Source: Gemmatimonadota bacterium | GTDB taxonomy: Bacteria > Gemmatimonadota > Gemmatimonadetes > Gemmatimonadales > GWC2-71-9 | Length of the DNA stretch: 64,000 nucleotides | Direction of reading: 5' to 3' | Assembly (NCBI GenBank): GCA_003221005.1 | Contig: QHTZ01000067.1 | Span: 69,194 to 133,193, forward strand | Translations under genes and position numbers: made by a program | Notes under the pieces: model-generated | The model's input: only the letters and a program-made list of their open reading frames with translations | Database searches by the model: none | Told to the model about the DNA's origin: nothing | Part shown: piece by piece, positions 2,201-25,328 of the stretch | Position numbering within the stretch: position 1 is the stretch's first letter | How the letters are laid out: the number at the start of each line of letters is the position of its first letter

Positions 2201-3543
2201 CCGAGGGCCGGCTCAGCGCGATCCTCACGCGGCGGTTCCGCCGCGTCGCTTGGACGGCGCTCACCGGCTACACGCTGCTCGTCGTGGCGGCGTTCGTCGT
2301 CGCGGGCGAAGCGGTGCTGCGCCGCTCCCTCGAGCACTCCGCCGACGTGATCCAATCGCTGCTGGGCGCGTACACCGACTCAACCGGGGGACCGGGGAGC
2401 GTGATGCCCGCGACGCTGGCCGAGCAGCTCGTCGGCATGGGCGGCCAGGTTGTCATCACCCGCACGCGGACCAACGCCGGCGGGATGCAGGAAGTGTACT
2501 TCCTTTCGCCGGGCATGCCCGCCAAGCGGCTCGAGGGCATCCCCGCGAGTGCCTCCCCGGAGGACGTGCGCCAGGTGTTGCTCGCGGCGATTGCGCAGCG
2601 CGCGCGCTGGCGCTACCGCGTGCTGCACCGCTCGATGGGCACCTTCGACATCTACATCGTCGCGAGCCGCGAGCCGTATCTCGTCGCGCTCGCCGCCGTG
2701 GCGGCTGCGGCCCTGCTGTTATTGCCCGGCGCCGCGCTCAGCGCCGGACGCGGCGCAGGCCAGGCCGTCGCGGCGGCGCTCGATCCCCTCGAGCGCGTGG
2801 CCGCCGAGACGCGCGCCATCGGCCCCGCCGAGCTCGGCAAACGGCTCACCAGCCCCACCGGCCAGGCGGAGGTCACGGAGCTCGCCGACAGCATCAACCG
2901 TATGCTCGAGCGCGTGGACCGGGCACACCGTGCCCTCGAGGCGTTCACCGCCGACGCGAGTCACGAGCTGCGCACGCCGCTTACCCACCTGCGCGCGCAG
3001 GTGCAGTGGGCCCTCGCCGAGGGGCGCTCCGAGCCGGAAGTGCGCGACGCGCTGATGGCGCTGGAGCGCGAGCTCGAGCGCACGACAAAGCTAGTCGAAG
3101 AGCTGCTGCTGATCGCCCGCGGGGAGAACCGCCAGCTCGCGCTCGCACACGAATCATTCGATCTTGCGACCGTGGTGGACGAGGTGCGGGAGATCACCGA
3201 AGCGATGGCGGTCGGCCGGGATCTCGTCGTACGCTCCGACGCCCTCGACCCGACGCTGGCGGTGGGCGACGCCGATCGCACCCGTCACATCCTCCTCAAC
3301 CTCGCCTCCAACGCCGTGCGCTACACGCCGCGCGGCGAGATCACCTTCTCGCTGCGGCGCAACGTCGACCGGTTCTTCCGGATTGATCAGTCCCGCAGCC
3401 GCGCGCTCGGTGGCACGGGCCTGGGCCTTGCGATCGCACGCCTGCTTGCCGAGCTCCAGGGGGGCGAGATCACAGTGGAAAGCACACTTGGCGCGGGGAG
3501 TACGTTCACGGCGTGGCTGCCGGCGGCGCGCCTCACCCCCTGA
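2197..3543 (+). CDS. HAMP-containing sensor histidine kinase; HATPase domain lacks the G1 (DxGxG) box
   Basis: Two TM segments, HAMP, H-box ASHELRTPL, N-box NLASNAVRY and G2 GTGLGL. GTGA overlap with the response regulator. Confidence 0.85.
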   Translation: MTEGRLSAILTRRFRRVAWTALTGYTLLVVAAFVVAGEAVLRRSLEHSADVIQSLLGAYTDSTGGPGSVMPATLAEQLVGMGGQVVITRTRTNAGGMQEVYFLSPGMPAKRLEGIPASASPEDVRQVLLAAIAQRARWRYRVLHRSMGTFDIYIVASREPYLVALAAVAAAALLLLPGAALSAGRGAGQAVAAALDPLERVAAETRAIGPAELGKRLTSPTGQAEVTELADSINRMLERVDRAHRALEAFTADASHELRTPLTHLRAQVQWALAEGRSEPEVRDALMALERELERTTKLVEELLLIARGENRQLALAHESFDLATVVDEVREITEAMAVGRDLVVRSDALDPTLAVGDADRTRHILLNLASNAVRYTPRGEITFSLRRNVDRFFRIDQSRSRALGGTGLGLAIARLLAELQGGEITVESTLGAGSTFTAWLPAARLTP

Positions 3544-3606
3544 CCCCCTCTCCGCGAGGCGCAGGCCTCACCCCCTCTGGCCCCTCTCCGCAATGCGGAG
3601 AGGGGG
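3531..3606. repeat. REP-like palindromic element (two CCTCACCCCC..CCCCTCTCCGC units; 12-bp inverted repeat)
   Basis: Units start at 3531 and 3566. cccctctccgca (3581-3592) is the reverse complement of tgcggagagggg (3594-3605). Lies between convergent genes. Confidence 0.65.
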
Positions 3607-3622
3607 AACGAGAGTGAGATGT

Positions 3623-4783
3623 CTAGCGAGCCGCGAGCCCGGCGACTGAGCCGGGCATGTTCCCGACCACGCCCAACGTGGTGAGGTGGCCGTCAGACTC
3701 CACCCGCAGCGCCGTGATCGGGCCGCTGCCGCGCAGCTGGTACAGATAGCGTCCGTTCACGCTCAGCGCCAAATCGAGGTTGCCCGGGCCCACCGTAGCA
3801 GTGACGCCGCTCGCATCGAGCAGGCTGAGGGAGCCATCCGTGCCCACAGCGAACCCGGAGATCGTACCGCTGGCCGCGTTGGCCGAGTACGCGAAACGGC
3901 CGTTCTTGGTCACGCCCACCCAGCAGGGGGCGCCCTGGTGCGTGGCTACCGCGCCACTCACCAGTGTCACTCGGCCGCTCGAACCGAGGGTGTATGACGA
4001 TGCACTGCCCGTGGCGGCTTCGGAGACGATCAGCTCGTTCCGCAACCCGAACGCGAACCCGAACGGCTTGATGCCGGCGCCGGCAGGCGCCTGGGGCGTG
4101 GGACCGCTCGCCACACCATCGGGGGTGACCGAGTACACGTCGATGCTATTCGTATTCTTCTCAGTCACGACCAGCCACCGGCCATCGGGGCCGAACGCTA
4201 CCTGGGCGGGGTCCACCGCTGCGCCACCGAGCGGGCGCGTCGATCCCGGAATGGGCGCGAGCGCTCCGTCCGAGCCGACGGTGAACCCGCTGACGTTCCC
4301 GCTCCCACCGCCGTTGAGGACGTAAACGATGTTGTCATGAACCGTCAGGCTGATCGGCTTCGTTCCACCCGACAAATGGCGATCGGTGAGCGAAAGGCCC
4401 GCCGGGCTCACGCGGAACGCCGAGATGTCATTGCTGCCCGCGTTGACGGTGAACAACCAGCGCCCATCGTCGCTCAAAGCGAGCGCGCCCTGCGAGCCGA
4501 GGCTGCTCCCGGTCCCCGTGCCACCGGTTGCGACCGTGCCCGCCGCGGTGAGCGTACCGGCGGCCGAGCGCTGGAAGATCGCAACGGCATTTCCCCCATT
4601 GGCCGCGACCTGGTTCATCAGCGTGTACACCGCGCCCGGAGTGTCCTCTGCATCTGCGGCGCTCGCGGCGCTGGCGCTGAGCTCACGCCGCAGCGGTGCG
4701 GCGGGGCCTGTAATCCCGCGATCCCGCGAGCAGGCGGCGACACCGGCCACCGCCAGCGCAACGAGTGCGATTCTTTGTGCCAT
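3623..4783 (-). CDS. Lactonase-family beta-propeller lipoprotein
   Basis: Lipobox VAAC. Repeated propeller motifs (SDDGRWLFTVNAGSNDISAF, PCWVGVTKNGRFAYSAN). Confidence 0.85.
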   Translation of the reverse strand: MAQRIALVALAVAGVAACSRDRGITGPAAPLRRELSASAASAADAEDTPGAVYTLMNQVAANGGNAVAIFQRSAAGTLTAAGTVATGGTGTGSSLGSQGALALSDDGRWLFTVNAGSNDISAFRVSPAGLSLTDRHLSGGTKPISLTVHDNIVYVLNGGGSGNVSGFTVGSDGALAPIPGSTRPLGGAAVDPAQVAFGPDGRWLVVTEKNTNSIDVYSVTPDGVASGPTPQAPAGAGIKPFGFAFGLRNELIVSEAATGSASSYTLGSSGRVTLVSGAVATHQGAPCWVGVTKNGRFAYSANAASGTISGFAVGTDGSLSLLDASGVTATVGPGNLDLALSVNGRYLYQLRGSGPITALRVESDGHLTTLGVVGNMPGSVAGLAAR

Positions 4784-14249: not shown

Positions 14250-15479
14250 TTACGGGTCGAACCGGTCCAGCTTCCGGTCCCGCCGCCGCGCGAGCCAGTA
14301 GAGCGGCACGCCCAGGATCAGCGTCGCCCCTGAGGCGACCCACGCCTCAGCGATCCCCCGTGTGCGCGCGAGCCATCCCCATCCCGTCTGCCCGGCCACG
14401 CCACCCACGTTCGCGAAGAATGAATCGAGCGAGATGATCGTGGCTCGCTGCTGCGACGGGATGTGGGCGTTGAGATAGCCCTGCTTCACCGGCATCCCCA
14501 CGCCGAGTGCCATGCCATAGACGAGGTACAGCCCCACCACCACGTAGAAGTCCCGCAGCAGGCCGCACAGGACTACCGTGACCACCTGCACGACCACTGA
14601 CGCGATCAGCATTCCGGTGCGCGAGCGAACGACGCGCGACAGCGGCACGACAAGCGCATTGCCGGCGATCAGCGTGAGCGACGTGAGCGCGGCGATCACC
14701 CCCGACACCCACACCGCCTCCCGCCCCAGCAGGTCCAGGAAGTAGCGCTGCCAGCTGTAGAAGCCGAAGATCATAAAGCTCATCGAGACGAGCGACCCGA
14801 GCATCAGCGGCCGGACCACCGGGTGGTGCAAGCCGTAGCGCATGCCCTCCACGAACACGCGCCGCATCTCCGCCGGCACGCGCGACAACGCGAGCGCACG
14901 CGGGGTGTAGCCGAGCTCGCGCATCCCGAACCAGGCCAGCGCGAACAACGGCACCACGATTCCCGCCCGCACGAGGTAGGGCACGGCGAGATCGATCTGA
15001 CCCAGCAAGCCGCCGGCGAGGGTACCGACCAGCATCGCCGCGCCGAACGCCATCTGACCGCGCGCGAACACCGGCTCGAGCGGCGCGGTGTACCCCGTCG
15101 CCTTGAGAGCGTCGACCAGCCATGCGTCCACCGCGCCGGTGTAGAACGTGTAGCCGAGTCCCAGAAACACCGACACGGCGGCGAACGGCCAGAAGCCCCA
15201 CCCGAGCCGCGCGATCGCCACGTAGCAGAGTGTGGTGACGAACAAGGTGGCGAGGCACAACAGCAGCGAAATACGCCGCCCGAGGGTGTCGGCGACGACG
15301 CCGGTGGGGATCTCGAACAGGACGTTGCCCAGCGTGAACGCGGCATTCGTGAGCATCACCTGGAAGATGTCCAACCCCGCGTGGAGCTTGAACAGCGTGT
15401 CGATGCCCCAGATCAGGGACATCGCCAGGTTGAAGAGCCCGGTGATCAGCAGGTAGACGCGGATGATCTGTGCGCTCAC
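14250..15479 (-). CDS. MFS transporter
   Basis: Multiple TM helices, FEIPTGVVADTLGRR and IPSQQRATIIS. GTGA overlap with the SBP gene. Confidence 0.9.
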   Translation of the reverse strand: MSAQIIRVYLLITGLFNLAMSLIWGIDTLFKLHAGLDIFQVMLTNAAFTLGNVLFEIPTGVVADTLGRRISLLLCLATLFVTTLCYVAIARLGWGFWPFAAVSVFLGLGYTFYTGAVDAWLVDALKATGYTAPLEPVFARGQMAFGAAMLVGTLAGGLLGQIDLAVPYLVRAGIVVPLFALAWFGMRELGYTPRALALSRVPAEMRRVFVEGMRYGLHHPVVRPLMLGSLVSMSFMIFGFYSWQRYFLDLLGREAVWVSGVIAALTSLTLIAGNALVVPLSRVVRSRTGMLIASVVVQVVTVVLCGLLRDFYVVVGLYLVYGMALGVGMPVKQGYLNAHIPSQQRATIISLDSFFANVGGVAGQTGWGWLARTRGIAEAWVASGATLILGVPLYWLARRRDRKLDRFDP

Positions 15480-16345
15480 GGAACGTGCGCCTCGAGCCAG
15501 TCGTGCGCGATCGCCCGGATGTCCTGGTGCTGCACGTCGGCCAGCGCATTCAAGCGCCGCATCTCGTCGTCCGAGATCTTGCCGGTCAGCTCGCCGAGCG
15601 CGGCCGCCACCTCGGGATGGCGCCGCAACACCACTTCACGCGCGACGACCGCGGCTTCGTAGGGAGGGAAGTAATGCCGATCGTCTTCCAGGGCGACGAG
15701 ATCGAGCGCGGCGATCTGACCGTCCGTCGAGTTGCCGGCGATCATGTCCACCTTTCCGTCGGCGAGCGCGCGGTAGGTGAGTCCCAAGTCCATCGCGGTC
15801 GGAGGCGCGCGGAAGGCAAGCCTGTACACCTGCGACAGCCCGGCGAATCCGTCTGCGCGCTCCAGGAACTCGTAACCGAACCCCGCCTTCCACCGCGGCG
15901 CGACGCGCGCCACGTCGGAGATCCGCGTCAGGCCATATTGCCGCGCTTCCGTCCGGCGGATCAGAATCGCGAACGTGTTGTTGAAGCCGAACGGCGCGAG
16001 CCACCGCAGGCCGAAGCGTGCCGCATAGTCGCGCGCCACGACTCGCGCCACGCTGTCCCGATCGCTCACCGGGGGGTGCTTGAGCACCGCCGTGAACGCG
16101 GTGCCCGTGTACTCGGGATAGAGATCGATCTGTCCCGCGACGATCGCCTGATGACACACGAACGTGCCACCCAGGTGCAGGCGTCGCTCCACGGGCAGGT
16201 GCGCGCGCCGCTCGATCTGCTGCGCCACGAGCTCGGCGAGCAAGTCGGACTCCGTGAAGTTCTTGGCGCCCACGACGATCCGGTCGTGCCGGGCACACGA
16301 ACTTGCTGCGGAGAGCGCGAGCACCGCGGCGAGCAACGCGAGCAT
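15476..16345 (-). CDS. Glycine betaine/quaternary-amine ABC transporter substrate-binding lipoprotein (OsmF/OpuCC-like)
   Basis: VGAKNFTES, IDLYPEYTGT, GFNNTFAI and LEDDRHYFPPY. The start may extend to 16447. Confidence 0.9.
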   Translation of the reverse strand: MLALLAAVLALSAASSCARHDRIVVGAKNFTESDLLAELVAQQIERRAHLPVERRLHLGGTFVCHQAIVAGQIDLYPEYTGTAFTAVLKHPPVSDRDSVARVVARDYAARFGLRWLAPFGFNNTFAILIRRTEARQYGLTRISDVARVAPRWKAGFGYEFLERADGFAGLSQVYRLAFRAPPTAMDLGLTYRALADGKVDMIAGNSTDGQIAALDLVALEDDRHYFPPYEAAVVAREVVLRRHPEVAAALGELTGKISDDEMRRLNALADVQHQDIRAIAHDWLEAHVP

Positions 16346-16375
16346 GCCGGCCCGGCGTTTCCCGTGCCCTGAAGG

Positions 16376-16428
16376 GCCGGCTCGGCGTAAACGCGCGTCT
16401 TTAAAGACGCGACCTCGGCCGAGCCGGC
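16376..16428. repeat. Nested palindromic element
   Basis: 11-bp arms gccggctcggc (16376-16386) and gccgagccggc (16418-16428) enclose the perfect 18-bp palindrome cgcgtctttaaagacgcg (16394-16411). Confidence 0.75.
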
Positions 16429-16472
16429 GTTTCAACGCACGGACCACACGTGAGGCCAGGTGGGAGTCCTGC

Positions 16473-17102
16473 TCACCTTGCCCGCCACACCAGCCGCCGC
16501 TCGAGCAGCGCGAACAGGCCGTCCGCCGCCAGCGCCATCAGCGCCGCCGGGATCGCGCCCGCGAGGATCAAGGTGTCGTCCACCACCGCCACGCCGCGGA
16601 AGACGTAGACGCCGAGCCCGCCCGCGCCGATCGCGGCGCCGATCGTAGCCACGCCCACGCTCACGACCGTCGCGACGCGCACACCCGCGAGAATGACCGC
16701 CGCAGCGAGGGGCAGCTCCACCAGCCGCAGCAGCTCGGCGTCCGTCATCCCCATGCCGCGACCGGCTTCGCGGATGGCTGGGTCCACGCCCGCGATTCCC
16801 GTGTAGGTGTTGCGCACGATGGGGAGTAGCGCGTACACGATCAGCGCGGTGATCGCCGTCCAGAACCCGATGCCGAAGATCGGAATGAGGATCCCGAAGA
16901 GCGCGAGGCTCGGGATCGTCTGGAACACCCCCGCGAGCCCGAGCACGGGGGGCCGCCACGCGGGTCGGCGGGTGAGCACCACGCCGAGGGGAATCCCCAC
17001 GAGTGCCGCGGCACCGGTCGAGAGTACCACCAAGACGAGGTGCTGACCGACGAGACCGAGTGCCTCATGGGCGTTGCGCGCGAAGAACGCTACCAACCTC
17101 AT
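16473..17102 (-). CDS. Osmoprotectant-type ABC transporter permease
   Basis: QTIPSLAL, LLPIVRNTYTGI and the EAA loop EAGRGMGM..VELPLA. Confidence 0.92.
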   Translation of the reverse strand: MRLVAFFARNAHEALGLVGQHLVLVVLSTGAAALVGIPLGVVLTRRPAWRPPVLGLAGVFQTIPSLALFGILIPIFGIGFWTAITALIVYALLPIVRNTYTGIAGVDPAIREAGRGMGMTDAELLRLVELPLAAAVILAGVRVATVVSVGVATIGAAIGAGGLGVYVFRGVAVVDDTLILAGAIPAALMALAADGLFALLERRLVWRAR

Positions 17103-17851
17103 GCCGCCTCCAGGAAGCGGCGGACCTCGGGGTGCTCGTTGCGACGGAATTCGTCGGGGGTACCGAGGAACAGCAGCCGTCCCGCATGCATCAACCCGAT
17201 GCGCGTCCCCAGGAGCAGCCCCTCCCGCACGTCGTGGGTCACGAACACCATGCCCTTTCCCAGCCGCCCCTCGAGGGCGCGGAATTCCTGCTGCAGTTCG
17301 AAGCGCGTAATGGGATCGAGTGCGCCGAACGGCTCGTCCAGGAGCAGCAGCGGCGGGTCGGCAGCGAGCGCGCGCGCCACCCCGACCCGCTGCCGCTGAC
17401 CGCCCGAGAGCTGGTGCGGATAGCGTCCACCGAACGCCTCCGGGTCGAGCCCCACGAGCGCGAGCAGCTCGCGCACCCGGGCCGCGATCCGCTCTGGAGG
17501 CCAGCGTTCGAGCCGCGGCACGAGTCCCGCGTTCTCGGCCACCGTGAAATGCGGCAGCAGACCCACCTCCTGAATCACGTAGCCGATCCGCCGCCGCAGC
17601 GACGTGGGCTCGAGCGCCGCGGTCCGCTGCCCCGCCACCAACACCTCCCCCACCGAAGGCTCGAGCAGACGGTTGATGAGCTTAAGTGTGGTCGTCTTCC
17701 CAGAGCCGCTGCGGCCGAGGAGCACGAGGGTCTCTCCTGCACCCACAGTGAAGGACACGTCCCGGACGATCGGCAGGACCCGTCCCTCCTCCCCCGTCCC
17801 TCTTCCCGGCAACGTATAGCCGAGTCCCCGGACCTCGAGCACGGCGCTCAT
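17099..17851 (-). CDS. Osmoprotectant-type ABC transporter ATP-binding protein
   Basis: GRSGSGKT, LSGGQRQR and LLLDEPF. ATGA overlaps at both ends. Confidence 0.93.
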   Translation of the reverse strand: MSAVLEVRGLGYTLPGRGTGEEGRVLPIVRDVSFTVGAGETLVLLGRSGSGKTTTLKLINRLLEPSVGEVLVAGQRTAALEPTSLRRRIGYVIQEVGLLPHFTVAENAGLVPRLERWPPERIAARVRELLALVGLDPEAFGGRYPHQLSGGQRQRVGVARALAADPPLLLLDEPFGALDPITRFELQQEFRALEGRLGKGMVFVTHDVREGLLLGTRIGLMHAGRLLFLGTPDEFRRNEHPEVRRFLEAA

Positions 17852-18801
17852 TGCGCCCCCGCCCCCACCAGCACCATTTGAAAGCGGCCGTCTTCGCTCG
17901 TCCCGCGCCAGCGCTGCCCGAGGCCGGCATCTCGCAGGATTCGCAGGAACGTGTCGGCGTCGTACTTGTACGAGTGGTTCATTTCCAGCCGCTCGCCGGC
18001 ACCGAGGGTCAGGGACTCTCCGCCGAGCCGGGCGGCGACGTCGCGGGTCGCCCGGAAGTGCTTGGTGAGGGGATGCAGCCCGGGGACGCGCGCGTCCTCG
18101 CGGTCCTCGAACACGAGCTCGCCGTCGGCCTCGGTGATCCCGACGGCGTGGAGCGGCGCCCACGCGAAGCGCCGGTTCAGGGGGTTGTCATAGCCAGCGA
18201 CGGTGGCCTGGGCGGCGTAGATCTCGCCGTCCACGAGGAGCAGGTCGTCCCCGCGGAGCAGTTTCCGCAGGGCCCGCGTCTCGACCAGCGGATCGAATGC
18301 GCCGAGGGTGTTGCCCAGGAGCAAAATCAGGCGCGGCGGCGTTTCGGGATTAGGCGCCAGTGCAGTGAGGTGGTCGGTCCGTGTGAAGTCGGCCTTGACG
18401 CCCTGGGCGGGGAGCCCCGCGGCGACGGCGCCCTGACACGCGAGCTCGAGCAACGCCTGGCTCGTGTCTACGGGCGTGTAGGAGACGCGGATCCCGTGGG
18501 GTCGCAGCGCTTCGATGAGAAGCAGGTCCTTGTCCCCCTGCCCCGAGCCCAGGCTCAGGACCTCGAGCGGGCCGGGGGGTATGTAGCCAGCGAGGTCGGC
18601 GGCGGACCGAGCGATGAGCGAGCGCGACCGCACGTAGTTCCGGTAGGCGCCGTCCGAGCAGAGGGCGAGCCAGGCTCGGACGGACAGCGGAAACCAATAG
18701 AAGAATTTCTCCGGGAGCCGACGCGCGCGAAACGCGGCGACGAACTCGTCGGCGAGCGCGGTCTCGGTAAGTAGCGTGTGAGTGACGATCACGGAGTTCA
18801 A
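17848..18801 (-). CDS. EgtD-like (Methyltransf_33) SAM-dependent methyltransferase, diverged
   Basis: LPEKFFY, SLGSGQGDK, YTPVDTS, LLGNTLG, AGYDN and HSYKY follow the EgtD motif order. Start uncertain (18801 TTG or 18792 GTG). Confidence 0.8.
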   Translation of the reverse strand: MNSVIVTHTLLTETALADEFVAAFRARRLPEKFFYWFPLSVRAWLALCSDGAYRNYVRSRSLIARSAADLAGYIPPGPLEVLSLGSGQGDKDLLLIEALRPHGIRVSYTPVDTSQALLELACQGAVAAGLPAQGVKADFTRTDHLTALAPNPETPPRLILLLGNTLGAFDPLVETRALRKLLRGDDLLLVDGEIYAAQATVAGYDNPLNRRFAWAPLHAVGITEADGELVFEDREDARVPGLHPLTKHFRATRDVAARLGGESLTLGAGERLEMNHSYKYDADTFLRILRDAGLGQRWRGTSEDGRFQMVLVGAGAQ

Positions 18802-18811
18802 GAGTTACCGG

Positions 18812-18840
18812 TTGACGGGTCTGGCGGCAACCCGTATGCT
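18812..18840 (+). promoter_or_regulatory. sigma70-type promoter of the peptide operon
   Basis: TTGACG-N17-TATGCT, 51 nt upstream of the peptide ATG. Confidence 0.7.
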
Positions 18841-18891
18841 ACGTTTCGTCTGCCGTCGTCTGATTTCCACGTAAAGACGGAGGATATTCGC

Positions 18892-18984
18892 ATGCAGATC
18901 GTCGAGACGCAGGAGCTCGTGCCCACCTGTCATCGGCCTGAGGTCGTGGAGACGAGCGAGCTGCAGCCAACCTGTCACTCCTGA
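18892..18984 (+). CDS. Putative RiPP precursor peptide MQIVETQELVPTCHRPEVVETSELQPTCHS (30 aa)
   Basis: GGAGG 8 nt before the ATG. Two repeats differing at synonymous positions. First gene of an operon containing a DUF692 enzyme. Confidence 0.85.
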   Translation: MQIVETQELVPTCHRPEVVETSELQPTCHS

Positions 18985-18998
18985 CGCAGGGCGGCTGG

Positions 18999-20123
18999 AT
19001 GCAAGAGGGGGCCCGGACCGATTTCGGGCCCCTTTCGCGTTTCCTGGGCACGGAGGCGCGACTGGGGTTCGGGGGCTGGGCGGTGGGCGGCGCGGGCTGG
19101 GGGACGCCAGACGACACGCACGAGCGCGAGGCCGCGATCCGGCGCGCCGTCGAGCGGGGCGTCACGTTCTTCGACACCGCGCCGACGTACGGTGACGGCG
19201 AGTCCGAGCGACTGCTGGGCCGCGCGCTCGGAACCGTGCGCGAGCGGGTGGCGATCGCCACCAAGGTCGGCCCGCGCGACGATCCACGCGCCTCACTCGA
19301 AGCGTCGCTGCGCCGCCTCACCACGGACTGCGTGGACCTGGTGCAGCTGCACGAAGCGCTCGAACGGTGGGAATGGCAACTCGAAGCGCTCTATCGGCTG
19401 CAGCTCGAGGGAAAGGCCCTCGCGATCGGGCTCTGCAACGCCACTCACCTGCAGGTCGCGCGGGCGCTGACCATCGCTCCCCTGGCGACGTATCAGGGCA
19501 CCTACAACCTGTTCGATCGCGACGTAGAAGAGCGCGAGCTGCCACTGTGCCGCGAACGTGGCCTCGCGTTCCTGGCATTCCGGCCGCTCGCCGCAGGCCT
19601 GCTCACCGGCAAGTACCGGGAGCCTCCCGCCTTCCCGGACGATGACCACCGCCGCAAGGTCTATTGGTTCAAGGGGAAGGAGTTCGAGCGCCGCCAGCGG
19701 ACGATCGAGCGGCTGCGGCGCGTTGCGCGCCGGGAGGGCGTGTCGCTGCTCGAGCTCGCCCTGGGGTGGCTGCGCGCGCGGCCGGGGGTGAACATGGTCC
19801 TGGTGGGCGCGAGAAACCGGTCGCAGGTCGAGGAGGCGTTCGTCCCGGGCGTCGGGCCGCTGACAGCGGACACGGTGAACGAGATCGACCTCATAGTCCG
19901 CGAGGTCTTCCGCCCGGGCCGCGGCACGGCGCAACTCGAGCGGGCGGCCGCGACGTGGGGAGAGCGCGAGCGCTTCATCGCGGCGCGGCTCGACGGGAAG
20001 ACTCGCTACGAAGCGATCGCCGCCGAGTGGACCGACCGCGGCGAACAGCCGATGATCGCGGCGCAGATCAAGGTGTTCGTGGACCAGTTGGCTGAGCAAC
20101 GGTTGGTTGACGCCGACGGCTGA
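18999..20123 (+). CDS. Aldo-keto reductase with a C-terminal PqqD/RRE-like winged-helix extension
   Basis: AKR tetrad in FFDTAPTYG, IATK and VQLH. Extra ~60-aa tail RFIAARLDGKTRYEAIA..IKVFVDQLAEQRLV. Confidence 0.85.
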   Translation: MQEGARTDFGPLSRFLGTEARLGFGGWAVGGAGWGTPDDTHEREAAIRRAVERGVTFFDTAPTYGDGESERLLGRALGTVRERVAIATKVGPRDDPRASLEASLRRLTTDCVDLVQLHEALERWEWQLEALYRLQLEGKALAIGLCNATHLQVARALTIAPLATYQGTYNLFDRDVEERELPLCRERGLAFLAFRPLAAGLLTGKYREPPAFPDDDHRRKVYWFKGKEFERRQRTIERLRRVARREGVSLLELALGWLRARPGVNMVLVGARNRSQVEEAFVPGVGPLTADTVNEIDLIVREVFRPGRGTAQLERAAATWGERERFIAARLDGKTRYEAIAAEWTDRGEQPMIAAQIKVFVDQLAEQRLVDADG

Positions 20124-20129
20124 CCGCTG

Positions 20130-20915
20130 ATGGCTCTCATGGTCGGGGCGTTCTACAACCCTCAGCTCGGCGCTGAGCTCGCTGCGGCGAAGGGCATCGA
20201 CCACCTCGCCATGGCCGACCCGCCGGCAGCACACGATGCGCACTGGCCCACCATCCGCGAGCGCTACACGCTGCTGCTCCACGACTACCTCGGCCAGCTC
20301 TCCGAGCCGCTCGATGAACGCTCGATCGAGCGTGCCCGCTCCCTCGCTACGTTGTACCGCACACCGTGGATCGCCGAGCATTTCCAGTGCCTGCACACGG
20401 AAGACGGGCGCTACAACATCAACTACGTGTTCCCGCCGCTCTACACCGACGAGTTTCTGGAGCGTTTCGTCGCCAACGCACGCGCGCTCCAGGCGCGGCT
20501 CGAGCAGCCGCTCGTGATGGAGAACATCCCCGGCTTCTTCGACGTCAAGGCGAGCCAGCTCCCGGAGCCTGTCTGGCTCGCGCGTTTCTTCGACGCGACC
20601 GAGGTCGGCTTTCTGCTCGACCTGCCGCACGTTTGGCTCGAGGCCCACTACCGCGGCATGAAGCCTGAAGCGTGGCTCGCGCAATTCCCGCTCGAGCACG
20701 TAGTCGAGCTGCACGTGGCCGGCGTCGAGGAGGACGAGGACCTGCGAGGTCCCTGGATCGCGCCCACCGCCCCGTCGGAGGCCATGCTCGCGTTTCTGGC
20801 GCACGCCGTCACTCGCTGTCCCCGGGCCAAGGCTGTCACGTTCGACGCATTTTCGCCGTCGCTCACCGCCGACGTGCTGTTCCGGAGCGTTGAACGGATC
20901 CGGGGGGCGCTGTGA
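20130..20915 (+). CDS. DUF692-family multinuclear non-haem iron oxidative enzyme (MNIO), atypical
   Basis: LLLH, WIAEH, LVMEN, GFLLDLPH and VELHVAG appear in DUF692 order. Confidence 0.85.
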   Translation: MALMVGAFYNPQLGAELAAAKGIDHLAMADPPAAHDAHWPTIRERYTLLLHDYLGQLSEPLDERSIERARSLATLYRTPWIAEHFQCLHTEDGRYNINYVFPPLYTDEFLERFVANARALQARLEQPLVMENIPGFFDVKASQLPEPVWLARFFDATEVGFLLDLPHVWLEAHYRGMKPEAWLAQFPLEHVVELHVAGVEEDEDLRGPWIAPTAPSEAMLAFLAHAVTRCPRAKAVTFDAFSPSLTADVLFRSVERIRGAL

Positions 20916-21682
20916 CCGACCGGGCACTCCAGGACCTGGTGCTGCGCGCGCTGGCCGACGCCTCGTTCCGGGCGTCATCCGCCTGGCGGCAGCGTGCGCT
21001 CGCGGACCCCGCGAAGGTGGAGCGGTTCGCACGCTTCCTCGCGCGGCACTTCTACTACGAGCGGATCGTGCACTTCTTCAAGTACTCGGGGGCGCTGGCG
21101 CGTGTGACCGGCCGGCGACCAGAGGGGACGCTCCGCGGTGCCGAATTCGAAGCGCTGCTCCCCGTGGTCGTACTCGGCAGTCGGCAGACGGCTCGCGCGG
21201 TCGCCGATCTCGTCGTGCGCGAAGTGAAGGGCGGCGCCCCCGTGGCCTCGATCCCATATCGCGACGACTTGCTGCGCTACGAGGCGGCGATGATGGTCGC
21301 GGAGGCGGGGCCGAGGGTGTGGCGAGAGAACGGGAAGGGGGAAGAGGGAAGAGGAACGGGTGTCCCGGAAACCGCTGAAGGAACAGTGCTGCTGGATCTC
21401 GCCTACGACCTACCGGCGGTCCTGCCGCAGCTGCTCCAGCCGTGGACCGAGGTGCCGCAGGCGCCGCCGCGACCGGTGCGACTCCTCGTCGCGCGCTCGC
21501 CCCGCGGCCGGGTCGCGGTCGCTCGCACCGACAGCGCGGTGGCGCGCGTGGTCGAGCTCGCGGACGGCCGCCGCACCCTCGAAGAGCTCGCACGCGCGGC
21601 CGGGTTGCCGCGGAACGAGCTCGAGGCCACGCTCGCCGGGCTCACCGACCTCGGCGCCGTTCGCTTCGGGACGGGCAGCTGA
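20912..21682 (+). CDS. Putative MNIO partner protein (DUF2063-like N-terminus, C-terminal RRE-like winged helix)
   Basis: GTGA-coupled to the MNIO. Contains DLLRYE and a tail VELADGRRTLEELA..LAGLTDLGAV. Confidence 0.7.
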   Translation: MTDRALQDLVLRALADASFRASSAWRQRALADPAKVERFARFLARHFYYERIVHFFKYSGALARVTGRRPEGTLRGAEFEALLPVVVLGSRQTARAVADLVVREVKGGAPVASIPYRDDLLRYEAAMMVAEAGPRVWRENGKGEEGRGTGVPETAEGTVLLDLAYDLPAVLPQLLQPWTEVPQAPPRPVRLLVARSPRGRVAVARTDSAVARVVELADGRRTLEELARAAGLPRNELEATLAGLTDLGAVRFGTGS

Positions 21683-23176: not shown

Positions 23177-24784
23177 CTAGCTCACCATCTGCGCGGTGGC
23201 ATGGGGGATGACCTTCAGGAACGCCGCCACGACGCGTTCGGACCACCACGCCCGGCAGTTCATGATCTCCTCGAGCGCGCGCTCCGCGCTCACGGCCGCA
23301 TGCTCCGTGCGCGAGTTTGTGAGCGAATCGTAGACATCCAGGATGCCGACGATCTGCGCGGACAGCGGGATCTCGTCTCCCTTGAGCCGATCGGGATACC
23401 CGCTCCCGTCGCAACGCTCATGATGCCAGCGGATGATGGGCTTCAGGTCCCACGGAAACTCGACGTTCCCGAGCAGCTCGATCCCCCAGATAGGATGCAT
23501 CTGCAAGAGTTCGCGCTCGGCGCGGGTGAGCGGCCCGGGCTTGTGGAGAATCTCGTGGGGGACGCGTACCTTGCCGACGTCATGGAGATAGGCGCCGAGC
23601 AGAATGGTCGTCTCCTCCTGGTCGTTTAGCCCGAGGGCCCGCGCCACGGCGACCGCGTTTTGCGCCACGCGCTCGCAATGACCGAACGTGCAGCCGTCGC
23701 TCGATTCGATCGACTGGCCCCACGCGCGCACCACCGCCAGATACGTGGCTTCGAGCTCGGCCAACTTGCCGCCTACGTAGACCAGGTCCGCTCGGGCGTC
23801 CAGTTGGCGGAATAGGCCGTGGGCAACGTTGAGCACCCCGAGCGCGTCCTGGTTCCGGCCCATCGCCTGATGCAGGATGGCCAATTCGCGGGAGGCCTCC
23901 GCCTCGCCGAGGACGGAGCCCGCCGCGACGGCCAGCTCGATCGCCGCCAGGAACCGCGCCTCCGCGAGCGCCGGACGGCCCGTCTCGCGGTACACCATCC
24001 CGAGCACCCGATAAGCCCCGGCCTTGGGCCCACGCGCCCCGAGGTGATCGAACACGGCGAGCGCTTCCTCGGCCTTCTGGCGCGCGTCCTCGAACCGCTG
24101 GCGCATCACGTCCACCTCGGCGTGATTGACGAGACAGAGTCCGCGCAGATGGAGGTCGCCGACCCGCTCGGCGAGGGACCGGGCCTCGCGGAAATAGCAG
24201 TCTGCCGCATGGAACCGTCCCCGATCCGCGCTCACCATCCCCAGGTTGTGGTACGCGATCGCGCACCCCTGCGCGTCACCGGAGCCGCGGTACGCCTCGA
24301 GGGACCGCTCGTAGCGCGCGATGGCCTCGCGCAGCTCGCCCTGGATGTTCGCGAGGATGCCGAGATTCTGCTCGACGCGAGCGCGCAGCTCCTTCCTCGA
24401 TCCGCCGAGCTCGAGCGCCTCGAGAAACGTCAGCCGGGCGTCCTCGACCTTCCCGGCAGCCAGGTGGAGGCCGCCCAACGTATTCAACGCTTCCGCGGCA
24501 AGTAGCTCGTTGCCGATCTGCCGCGCGATCTCGTAGCTCCTGCGGCACAACGCGTGGGCCTGACCGGACTCATTCCCGTGGTGCCTGAGGATCGCAAGCC
24601 GCCGCAGCGCTTCGGCCAGCACCGTGTGCTCCCCGGCCTGCTCCGCGGCGGCGATGGCGGATCCGAAGCGCGCAATCGCTTCGGGGATCCGTCCCGCGCG
24701 CTCCTGCTGCCGCGCCTCGTGCAGCAGGTCCGCGCTGCGACGCATCACGCCGAGGGAGCGGCGCGGGGTCGCCCGGTCGGACAC
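23177..24784 (-). CDS. TPR-repeat HD-GYP phosphodiesterase
   Basis: N-terminal TPRs, then GHCERVA, LHDVGK and HHERCDGSGYP. Start uncertain. Confidence 0.9.
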   Translation of the reverse strand: MSDRATPRRSLGVMRRSADLLHEARQQERAGRIPEAIARFGSAIAAAEQAGEHTVLAEALRRLAILRHHGNESGQAHALCRRSYEIARQIGNELLAAEALNTLGGLHLAAGKVEDARLTFLEALELGGSRKELRARVEQNLGILANIQGELREAIARYERSLEAYRGSGDAQGCAIAYHNLGMVSADRGRFHAADCYFREARSLAERVGDLHLRGLCLVNHAEVDVMRQRFEDARQKAEEALAVFDHLGARGPKAGAYRVLGMVYRETGRPALAEARFLAAIELAVAAGSVLGEAEASRELAILHQAMGRNQDALGVLNVAHGLFRQLDARADLVYVGGKLAELEATYLAVVRAWGQSIESSDGCTFGHCERVAQNAVAVARALGLNDQEETTILLGAYLHDVGKVRVPHEILHKPGPLTRAERELLQMHPIWGIELLGNVEFPWDLKPIIRWHHERCDGSGYPDRLKGDEIPLSAQIVGILDVYDSLTNSRTEHAAVSAERALEEIMNCRAWWSERVVAAFLKVIPHATAQMVS

Positions 24785-24791
24785 CCAGCCC

Positions 24792-25328
24792 TCACCAGGC
24801 GATGGCATAGTCGGAAAAGTGACTGAGGTTGGCGGTGACCGCCTGAGCCGACGGGTCGTCGACCGACGGTAGGTACTCCAGGATGGACCCGGAGGCGTTC
24901 AAGTAGGCGATCCGCTTCGCGGCGCTGATCGCGCTGCAGTTGGCGTAGCTCATGGTCAGCGACGCCGGCTGCTGGAACGTGAGGCCTTCAGGTTGGAAGA
25001 CGACCCGGTTGAGGGTGTCCGACGGCGCTACCGCCGTGATGCTTACGGAGTCGCTCAGGGCACCCGGCGGGACCGAGAGTGTCTGCCCCCCCACCACGAG
25101 CGCTCCGCCCGCGGGACCGATCGTCTGCGTGACCGAATCGGCGGCGATGGGGGAGCACCTGAGCAGGCCCGCGCTCTGCTGGGCGGTTTGCACCAGCGAG
25201 TCGAGGAGGTCTCCCTGTATCGTCGGCGCTCGGGCATTCACGCCGAGGGGCGAGCGATCTCCACAGCTCAGGACGAGCACGGTGGCACCGCCGAGCAGCG
25301 CGGAGCGCACGAAGGCAGGGACGTTCAT
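24792..25328 (-). CDS. Lipoprotein with a ZU5-like beta domain
   Basis: Lipobox VLSC, then IGPAGG..LSVPPGAL, FQPEGLTF and HFSDYAIAW. Confidence 0.65.
   Translation of the reverse strand: MNVPAFVRSALLGGATVLVLSCGDRSPLGVNARAPTIQGDLLDSLVQTAQQSAGLLRCSPIAADSVTQTIGPAGGALVVGGQTLSVPPGALSDSVSITAVAPSDTLNRVVFQPEGLTFQQPASLTMSYANCSAISAAKRIAYLNASGSILEYLPSVDDPSAQAVTANLSHFSDYAIAW

Follow-up and report, generated by a model that had tools for sequence, protein, structure and literature searches.

Oxidative enzymes that depend on multinuclear non-haem iron (MNIOs; DUF692) form a rapidly expanding source of unusual peptide chemistry and, to our knowledge, each newly characterised subfamily has so far given a new reaction. 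ApyH of the aminopyruvatide pathway targets a C-terminal Asp, and the chryseobasin precursor ChrA combines a leader with a repeated Cys motif that lacks His. In the TglHI (pearlin) pathway to 3-thiaglutamate a Cys is the target and the peptide acts as the carrier of a small product. In the captophorin, bufferin and oxazolin systems an MNIO and a two-domain partner protein modify short repeated Cys motifs one by one, and the accessible text of PMC12668002 reports modification at all Cys residues of a repeat substrate and a leaderless peptide with two repeats as a sufficient substrate. Here we analyse a stretch of 64,000 nucleotides from a Gemmatimonadota bacterium (assembly GCA_003221005.1, contig QHTZ01000067.1, positions 69,194 to 133,193), referred to in full as the window, which carries a 30-residue open reading frame (ORF) at positions 18892-18984 of its forward strand, stop codon included, upstream of an MNIO gene. 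We consider it probable that this ORF encodes a translated, leaderless precursor peptide of a hitherto undescribed family of MNIO-dependent ribosomal natural products. By three criteria, namely the enzyme, the fold of its partner protein and the adjacent conserved Cys peptide, the surrounding cluster is an MNIO cluster for a peptide that is ribosomally synthesized and modified post-translationally (RiPP).

Translation of the ORF gives MQIVETQELVPTCHRPEVVETSELQPTCHS followed by TGA. The peptide is built from two cassettes of 12 residues, IVETQELVPTCH (18898-18933, forward strand) and VVETSELQPTCH (18943-18978, forward strand), both of the form [IV]VETxELxPTCH and repeated with a period of exactly 45 nt. 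The two share 9/12 residues and 26/36 nucleotides, and four of the identical residues are written with different synonymous codons (V, GTC/GTG; L, CTC/CTG; P, CCC/CCA; H, CAT/CAC). When the residues of the peptide were shuffled, none of 20,000 shuffles reached a cassette identity of 9/12; the best value was 7, seen 4 times. An initial annotation of the window, made from the sequence alone, had described a two-cassette ORF of this length, period and identity, which translation and repeat statistics reproduce, and the four codon differences are exactly as it claimed. The peptide is acidic and lacks a hydrophobic stretch, and two residues precede cassette 1. Among 67 distinct homologous contexts, 23 contain an in-frame stop 3-10 codons 5' of the peptide ATG, which excludes a longer leader in those contexts; the short N terminus and these stops agree with the proposed absence of a signal peptide or separate leader. 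The ORF also has its own ribosome-binding site, as annotated: a Shine-Dalgarno sequence, GGAGGA, lies 7 nt before the ATG (18879-18884, forward strand), and a GGAG-type motif is found at this place in 64/67 contexts, the three misses being cases in which an internal ATG had been picked.

Homologous loci were collected by an MNIO scan of one genome per prokaryotic species, from which the best 80 of 110 relatives were kept, and two further loci were added from relatives of the window's genome, giving 82 loci in all. All genomes in this set are metagenome-assembled genomes (MAGs), labelled mostly as Gemmatimonadales, with four Gemmatimonadaceae, two 'Actinomycetota' and seven Terriglobales or Acidobacteriales; the unpublished genomes G201 and G416 (locus L070) are included in some of the counts. 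The motif search upstream of AKR-DUF692 pairs (AKR, aldo-keto reductase) that the initial annotation had suggested found the cassette peptide retained in 76/82 of these syntenic loci; five of the six misses are contig ends and the sixth, L046, is rearranged. The upstream DNA is not cut by a contig end in 77 loci, and in 76 of these no gene other than that of the peptide is a candidate substrate next to the pair of MNIO and partner. In a set of 52 distinct homologues of 93 nt, 14, 8 and 25 of the 30 sites vary at the first, second and third codon positions, respectively, and the ratio of nonsynonymous to synonymous polymorphism (pN/pS) is 0.23 in frame versus 1.43 and 2.68 in the other frames, which bears out the selection at the protein level that had been read from the codon differences. 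In the same 52 two-cassette sequences 14/30 residues are invariant (M1, E5, L9, P11, C13, H14, E17, E20, T21, E23, L24, P26, C28 and H29), including the Cys and His of every cassette.

Across clades the cassette generalises to [IVL][IV]E-x-x-E-[LIVM]-x-P-x-C-H, with invariant E, L, P, C and H. The residue before the Cys may be T, S, A or G, so that 'x-C-H' is a better description than the 'TCH' core originally proposed, of which the Cys-His pair is conserved and the Thr is not. Homologues were also expected to vary in repeat number, and they contain two to four cassettes: two in 62 loci and in one more that a contig start truncates, three in eight loci (L071 and all seven Terriglobales loci) and four in five loci (L070 and L074-L077). 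The spacers between cassettes differ by clade, being RPE, four residues (e.g., SNFK) or absent. Terriglobales homologues end in Cys-His, and the window peptide ends in His-Ser and contains no Asp. A profile search of 1.84 billion representative proteins returned 46 at E ≤ 0.001; of the 14 examined, 11 are family members, none with more than four cassettes, and P0049, P0052 and P0053 were rejected as unrelated low-complexity repeats. A protein-database search with a 46-residue Terriglobales homologue as query gave 13 matches among 17 candidates, all of them unnamed or annotated as 'hypothetical protein', and no Pfam or NCBIfam model matched the peptide family. The ORF is a real gene, conserved and protein-coding, and has a Shine-Dalgarno sequence of its own.

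We also searched from the peptide outwards, with a degenerate DNA pattern that encodes V-E-x-x-E-[LIVM]-x-P-x-C-H and with the reversed pattern as control. Of 401 Gemmatimonadota genomes, 23 matched, 20 of them with two or three hits and three with single hits; the control gave six single hits and no doublets. The period of the Gemmatimonadota arrays is 45 nt, or 42-45 nt in the sole three-hit genome, G128. All 20 arrays lie between a methyltransferase gene and an AKR gene, and in 14 of these short loci the MNIO is also within reach; no such gene context surrounds the pattern in the three single-hit genomes. Among 301 genomes of the order Terriglobales, three contain arrays, here with a period of 48 nt and in all three cases between the methyltransferase and the MNIO with its partner; there was one single hit without cluster context, and the control gave two single hits. 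Multi-cassette hits are therefore confined to the cluster in 20/20 Gemmatimonadota and 3/3 Terriglobales genomes. The distribution of the cluster is patchy, at about 5% of the sampled Gemmatimonadota and about 1% of the sampled Terriglobales. Two loci, L070 and L071, come from MAGs labelled 'Actinomycetota', with MNIOs 71-72% identical to the Gemmatimonadales enzyme and peptides of four cassettes (L070) and of three cassettes without spacers between them (L071); mis-binning or horizontal transfer could account for them.

The core of the cluster is a fixed set of four genes encoding the peptide, the MNIO, the partner protein and an EgtD-like methyltransferase, with one exception, L084. The MNIO (20130-20915, forward strand, 261 aa) matches DUF692 (PF05114) at E 1e-26, with 94 bits against a cut-off of 25, and many His, Asp and Glu residues are invariant across 37 homologues. 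Its best NCBIfam model is ApyH (105.2 bits, cut-off 400), followed by BufB (86.3 bits, cut-off 310; E 2e-24); it scores 51.5 bits against HvfB (cut-off 360), and its PDB matches include TglH (E 9e-9). The window's own genome, which is 93.9% complete, holds one MNIO and one Methyltransf_33 protein. The partner gene (20912-21682, forward strand, 256 aa) overlaps the MNIO stop by 4 nt. Its AlphaFold model, with a predicted local distance difference test score (pLDDT) of 92.6, consists of a helical N-terminal domain and a C-terminal domain with a beta-sheet and three helices, of the winged-helix type that resembles a RiPP recognition element (RRE). The top PDB matches of the model are TglI (8hi7_A, E 8e-6; 8hci_A) and NGO1945 (3dee, E 2e-4); profile matches are to NGO1945_C (E 0.0014, 19.4 bits, cut-off 27) and ApyI (25.5 bits, cut-off 200), and a Pfam scan gave no DUF2063 match. 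This fold identifies the protein as an MNIO partner of the non-DUF2063 kind, termed 'type 2' in the accessible text of PMC12452194. Prediction of the complex of MNIO, partner and peptide from separate alignments gave a median score of 0.47, with 0.42 when the MNIO was replaced and 0.01 when the peptide was replaced; by the rule of the prediction tool, these values count neither for nor against binding.

Between the peptide and the MNIO the window carries an AKR (18999-20123, forward strand, 374 aa; PF00248, E 1e-59), which starts 14 nt after the peptide ORF and is followed by the MNIO gene after 6 nt. The model has a pLDDT of 90 and an AKR11-like barrel, with AKR11B and AKR11A as top PDB matches, and the tetrad Asp59/Tyr64/Lys89/His118 is invariant in 33 sequences. 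A strongly conserved, helical C-terminal extension of 60-70 residues resembles PqqD at E 0.0068, below the cut-off, and a fold search, in which the whole model retrieved nothing but AKR barrels, is uninformative on this tail. Of the two RRE-like domains originally proposed, the winged-helix domain of the partner is thus borne out, whereas the AKR tail offers only the sub-threshold PqqD match. The AKR is absent from the Terriglobales loci, L016, L050 and G142 and degenerate in L076, and it is therefore a tailoring enzyme rather than part of the core.

On the other side of the peptide, the methyltransferase gene (17848-18801, reverse strand; Methyltransf_33, PF10017, E 4e-24) begins 90 nt from the peptide ATG and heads a divergent operon that also encodes an ATP-binding cassette (ABC) importer and a major facilitator superfamily (MFS) transporter. 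It adjoins the peptide in 72/80 loci; of the other eight, seven are explained by contig ends or by the rearrangement in L046. A search of the 401 Gemmatimonadota genomes was bimodal, with 21 genomes at E ≤ 1e-88 and all others at E ≥ 2e-15. These 21 are the 20 pattern-positive genomes and G142, whose two-cassette peptide is missed by the strict pattern because of Asp and Leu variants, so that both genes are present in 21 genomes and neither in 380; as the genomes are related, these counts do not amount to a statistical test. The methyltransferase is a core partner of the cluster. It scores 61.6 bits against the egtD model TIGR03438 (cut-off 290.9) and matches EgtD in the PDB at E 1e-7 with a single sequence and 2.5e-17 with a profile. 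According to the accessible text of PMC8593015, EgtD holds the carboxylate of histidine through Tyr56, Tyr206 and Ser284, the amine through Asn166 and the imidazole through Glu282 and Thr213. In an alignment of low identity (roughly 25-30%), the carboxylate-holding residues correspond to the invariant Y53, Y204 and S277 of the methyltransferase, and Asn166 is replaced by Ala, Glu282 by Asn, Thr213 by Asn and Met252 by an invariant Lys. This tentative mapping points to a substrate with a free carboxylate other than plain histidine. N-terminal methylation of the peptide was considered and judged less likely, as the carboxylate triad is kept and the N termini of the peptides vary.

The remaining genes of the divergent operon encode a quaternary-amine ABC importer (15476-18163, reverse strand, with ABC_tran, BPD_transp_1 and OpuAC matches and similarity to the proV and choline families) and, as last gene, the MFS transporter (14250-15479, reverse strand; PF07690, E 3e-20). 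The importer consists of an ATPase (ORF 17099-18163, reverse strand, probable true start near 17850; ABC_tran), a permease (16473-17102, reverse strand; BPD_transp_1) and an OpuBC/EgtUC-type binding protein (15476-16447, reverse strand; OpuAC). For the binding protein, matches were obtained to OpuBC-derived sensors (E 4e-57) and to EgtUC, which binds ergothioneine (E 2e-47), as well as to choline, carnitine and betaine binders (about E 1e-47 to 1e-57). Importer genes were found in 51-55 of 80 loci and MFS orthologues, with 71-88% identity, in 41/80, counts that are limited by the many loci ending before the operon does.

The locus shares features with each of the described systems and departs from all of them. 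Captophorins and bufferins have the same logic of an MNIO, a two-domain partner and repeated Cys motifs, down to the leaderless two-repeat peptide that can serve as substrate. In contrast to these systems, a Sec signal peptide is missing from the window precursor and the DUF2063 signature from the partner, no DoxX gene was seen among the ORFs scanned near the operon, the MNIO lies far below the BufB and HvfB cut-offs, and the repeated unit is a 12-residue cassette with an invariant Cys-His pair instead of EGKCG or DUF2282; the AKR, the EgtD-like methyltransferase, the Opu-type importer and the MFS transporter are additions. The aminopyruvatide system provides the top curated models for both MNIO and partner and shares the type 2 partner and a precursor without signal peptide, yet both scores fall far short of the cut-offs, the window peptide has no Asp and a conserved Cys-His core, and no radical-SAM or P450 genes were seen at the cluster. 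TglI is the best structural match of the partner and TglH a match of the MNIO, and the target is likewise a Cys; here, however, the Cys is ribosomally encoded and internal to repeated cassettes, whereas pearlins modify one C-terminal residue, and the tRNA-dependent amino-acid ligase of pearlin clusters was not found in Pfam scans of the operon and its neighbours. The ChrA motif differs from the window cassette and the window MNIO reaches only 17 bits against the ChrH model, although chryseobasin likewise combines repeated Cys core motifs in one precursor with an MNIO and partner, as given in the accessible text of PMC10214503. The cluster fails the tested defining features of captophorins and bufferins, aminopyruvatides and pearlins, and the peptide most likely represents a new leaderless, multi-cassette family of MNIO precursors. 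Literature searches on MNIOs with an AKR, with EgtD or ergothioneine and in Gemmatimonadota, which did not extend to survey figures and supplements, found no description of this cluster, and no paper was found that covers both MNIOs and thiohistidine. The text of PMC12452194, as far as accessible, mentions neither an AKR nor Methyltransf_33, although its figures and supplements with Pfam names may include the group.

Upstream of the ORF, a consensus scan found a single predicted sigma-70-like promoter, TTGACG-17-TATGCT (18812-18840, forward strand), where shuffled sequences averaged 0.0 sites, and both hexamers lie in columns at least 90% conserved among 62 distinct homologous upstream regions, in line with the promoter of its own that the initial annotation had assigned to the peptide. 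The surrounding block, 18805-18845, is an imperfect palindrome (left arm approximately TTGAC, right arm approximately CAACCCG) and may be a repressor operator; a MarR gene lies near the cluster in the Terriglobales locus L082. A soil metatranscriptome contig of 195 nt covers 18816-19010, and with it the entire ORF, at 0 mismatches, and two more exactly matching RNA contigs fall inside the MNIO gene; they come from two metatranscriptome runs belonging to the study of the best DNA holder. The contig over the ORF is a weak hint of expression, and a lack of RNA contigs elsewhere in the region does not imply that those parts are silent.

Downstream of the ORF, a GC-rich stem-loop followed by a T-rich tract (19005-19035, forward strand) is a candidate attenuator or mRNA-stabilising hairpin. 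It begins 20 nt past the peptide stop, within AKR codons 3-13, and folds with 13 pairs at -34.3 kcal/mol (z -2.1); the consensus of the homologues has 10 pairs, and the stem is retained in 34/34 aligned Gemmatimonadales homologues with a compensatory change in one of the 10 pairs. In two loci without an AKR, L016 (1179-1265) and L050 (5939-6002), the hairpin and the first AKR codons survive in the gap between peptide and MNIO, which indicates that the AKR was lost by deletion and the RNA element kept. Different hairpins occupy the same position in L074 (T-rich tract, z -4.1) and L077 (T run, z -6.5); the sequence of L082 shows an inverted repeat with TTTTT after it, but the fold there is not significant (z -1.25). 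The retention in L016 and L050 and the different hairpins of L074 and L077 argue that the RNA structure itself is under selection. RiPP operons usually have a precursor gene followed by a leaky terminator.

Other explanations of the ORF have to be weighed against a modified precursor. We regard it as highly improbable that the ORF is a regulatory upstream ORF or leader peptide with a hairpin attenuator, or an unmodified small metal-binding peptide. The terminator-like hairpin overlaps the start of the next gene and has attenuator-like geometry, and the peptide does carry Cys and His; however, attenuator leader peptides conserve regulatory codons only, whereas here almost half of the residues are invariant, pN/pS is low, cassettes change in number with their sequence kept across two phyla, and no other candidate substrate gene accompanies the MNIO and partner in the 76 loci. 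A more specific possibility, somewhat doubtful in our view, is a metal-binding peptide product akin to bufferins, captophorins or methanobactin, either cytoplasmic or exported, in which each Cys would become a 5-thiooxazole or oxazolone-thioamide and, together with the His imidazole, chelate copper or another soft metal. BufB is the second-best model for the MNIO, the two to four sulfur/nitrogen donor pairs of a peptide would fit the binding of one or two metal ions, and the accessible texts describe MNIO and partner pairs that put 5-thiooxazoles on every Cys of short repeats (PMC12668002) and Cys-His pairs as good soft-metal ligands (PMC10221980). The 5-thiooxazoles of PMC12668002 are reported to go with a mass lower by 4 Da for each Cys, a chromophore at 300-340 nm and a thiolate that can still be alkylated. 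The missing Sec signal peptide speaks against it, as do the partner, whose NGO1945_C match is weak and which has no DUF2063 signature of type-1 partners, and the ORFs scanned near the operon, among which there are no DoxX, copper-resistance or metal-regulator genes; moreover, a metal-binding peptide leaves the amino-acid-type N-methyltransferase and the quaternary-amine importer unexplained.

The peptide could also be a sacrificial scaffold in a ribosomal route to an ergothioneine- or ovothiol-like thio-imidazole betaine, which we consider unlikely. The MNIO would take the role of an EgtB/OvoA-type synthase, passing the Cys sulfur to the neighbouring imidazole or otherwise fusing the pair, so that each Cys-His becomes an S-substituted imidazole amino acid; peptidases would excise it, the EgtD-like enzyme would N-methylate it, and the MFS transporter would export the product that the ABC system, similar to ergothioneine transporters, re-imports. 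As in ergothioneine and other thio-imidazole clusters, an EgtD-family methyltransferase stands beside OpuBC/EgtUC-type uptake genes, and Cys and His are the building blocks; here the operon headed by the methyltransferase also encodes an MFS transporter. According to the accessible text of PMC13674229, EgtB-type thio-imidazole clusters contain EgtD in 69.9% and Opu-type ABC parts in 13.6% and 5.4% of cases; the locus has this EgtD-like and Opu-type set, with the MNIO and the Cys-His peptide in place of EgtB, for which (TIGR03440) there is no match in the locus or in the 93.9% complete genome. The perfect co-occurrence of methyltransferase and peptide in the 401 Gemmatimonadota genomes, the three retained carboxylate-holding residues, the S33 peptidase-type alpha/beta-hydrolase added at some loci and the multi-copy cassettes, which suit a stoichiometric substrate, all fit such a route. 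On the other side, we know of no MNIO that makes a C-S bond to an imidazole, and the core set contains neither a C-S lyase nor a dedicated protease. All four amine and imidazole contacts of EgtD (Asn166, Glu282, Thr213 and Met252) are replaced in the alignment with the methyltransferase, the residue mapping itself rests on low identity, and the Terriglobales loci lack the ABC transporter. Set beside ergothioneine clusters, the locus also differs in that its methyltransferase scores far below the EgtD equivalog cut-off and in that its Cys and His come from a ribosomal peptide next to an MNIO. Of the two product types, the bufferin-like metal-binding peptide is the more conservative guess, held tentatively.

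If the ORF is, as we favour, a leaderless MNIO precursor, the gene set suggests how it might be processed. The winged-helix domain of the partner would bind each cassette at its acidic [IV]VETxEL segment, and the MNIO would oxidise the invariant Cys beside the invariant His, iteratively and once per cassette; possible outcomes are thiooxazole or oxazolone-thioamide formation, a C-S link to His and backbone cleavage. Where present, the AKR, with its peptide-binding-like tail, may reduce a carbonyl made on the peptide; the intact tetrad together with this tail suggests that such a carbonyl arises in the AKR-bearing lineages. The hairpin after the stop would raise the ratio of precursor to enzyme transcripts. 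The EgtD-like methyltransferase may N-methylate either the product after its release or a fragment whose carboxylate is free, the MFS transporter would export the product, and the quaternary-amine ABC system would take it back up.

Several observations weigh against a new MNIO precursor family, or against particular parts of that proposal. The chemistry of the cluster is deduced from sequence throughout; the MNIO lies far under every curated equivalog cut-off, so that the reactions of ApyH or BufB are not transferable to it, and the methyltransferase, predicted to lack equivalents of Asn166 and Glu282, probably does not share the substrate of EgtD. In the Terriglobales locus L084, AAA ATPases instead of an adjacent methyltransferase accompany the peptide, MNIO and partner. 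An MNIO search in six other genomes of the window's genus did not find the cluster, which is therefore accessory. Tandem Repeats Finder reported no DNA-level repeat in the ORF, the two copies having 72% nucleotide identity, which also fits a cassette repeat kept at the protein level. Covariation support for the hairpin within the Gemmatimonadales is thin because the stem is nearly invariant and overlaps AKR codons. The RNA evidence for the ORF is one low-depth contig from a library that possibly contains DNA, and this contig starts upstream of the predicted -10 box.

For natural-product enzymology, the interest of the cluster lies in a minimal substrate and an unusual gene set. The strict link to an N-methyltransferase and, in the Gemmatimonadales, the ergothioneine-transporter-related importer suggest a product unlike known MNIO peptides, and the minimal leaderless precursor of 30 residues and two cassettes is convenient for cell-free or Escherichia coli reconstitution. 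If the betaine route were true, it would add new chemistry for MNIOs and a new class of peptide-derived small molecule alongside pyrroloquinoline quinone (PQQ), mycofactocin and 3-thiaglutamate. The hosts are soil Gemmatimonadota and Acidobacteriota that remain uncultured, and their natural products have hardly been explored. Eighteen soil DNA runs, one of which is possibly the source sample, hold at least half of the sampled words of the stretch or near-identical sequence, and 20 runs from 15 studies hold any part of it, two of them being RNA runs with a small share; with the stretch present in many soil DNA runs, the product of the cluster may be ecologically common.

Additional genes occur within the cluster at some loci. 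An extra gene of about 370 residues lies between the AKR and the MNIO in L052, L054, L055, L058, L061-L064, L066, L067, L069 and L073; in L052 and L054 it encodes an alpha/beta-hydrolase (Abhydrolase_1, S33 aminopeptidase-like), and in the others it is deduced from a gap of about 1.1 kb. This S33-type hydrolase is a candidate peptidase for the Pro-flanked core. A different insertion separates the MNIO from the partner in L014, L018, L020, L026 and about 20 other loci. In L020 (L020:8948-9835, the coordinate given for this subgroup) it encodes a protein of about 400 residues with an LssY_C domain, and elsewhere it is suggested by a gap of about 1.2 kb. L020, the sole locus examined downstream of the partner, has a DinB_2 protein there. 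In L124 (G142:C208) the MNIO match at approximately 3059-3807 falls into two pieces, residues 2-214 and 226-261, a split for which a frameshift or an assembly error is possible.

Downstream of the cluster in the window, a 543-residue protein that combines TPR repeats with an HD/HD_5 (HD-GYP-like) domain is encoded at 23177-24808 on the reverse strand, with genes for ribosomal protein S21 and a cold-shock protein between it and the cluster; no link between this TPR/HD protein and the cluster was seen. On the side of the divergent operon, a 400-residue ORF at 14347-15549 (reverse strand) overlaps the real MFS ORF and was rejected as a spurious frame, being rich in Arg and Ala and without hydrophobic segments; an Atlas search with it pointed to the MFS transporter. 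The rejected frame still shows 43-61% tblastn identity in other loci, a case in which an off-frame ORF in high-GC DNA can look conserved.

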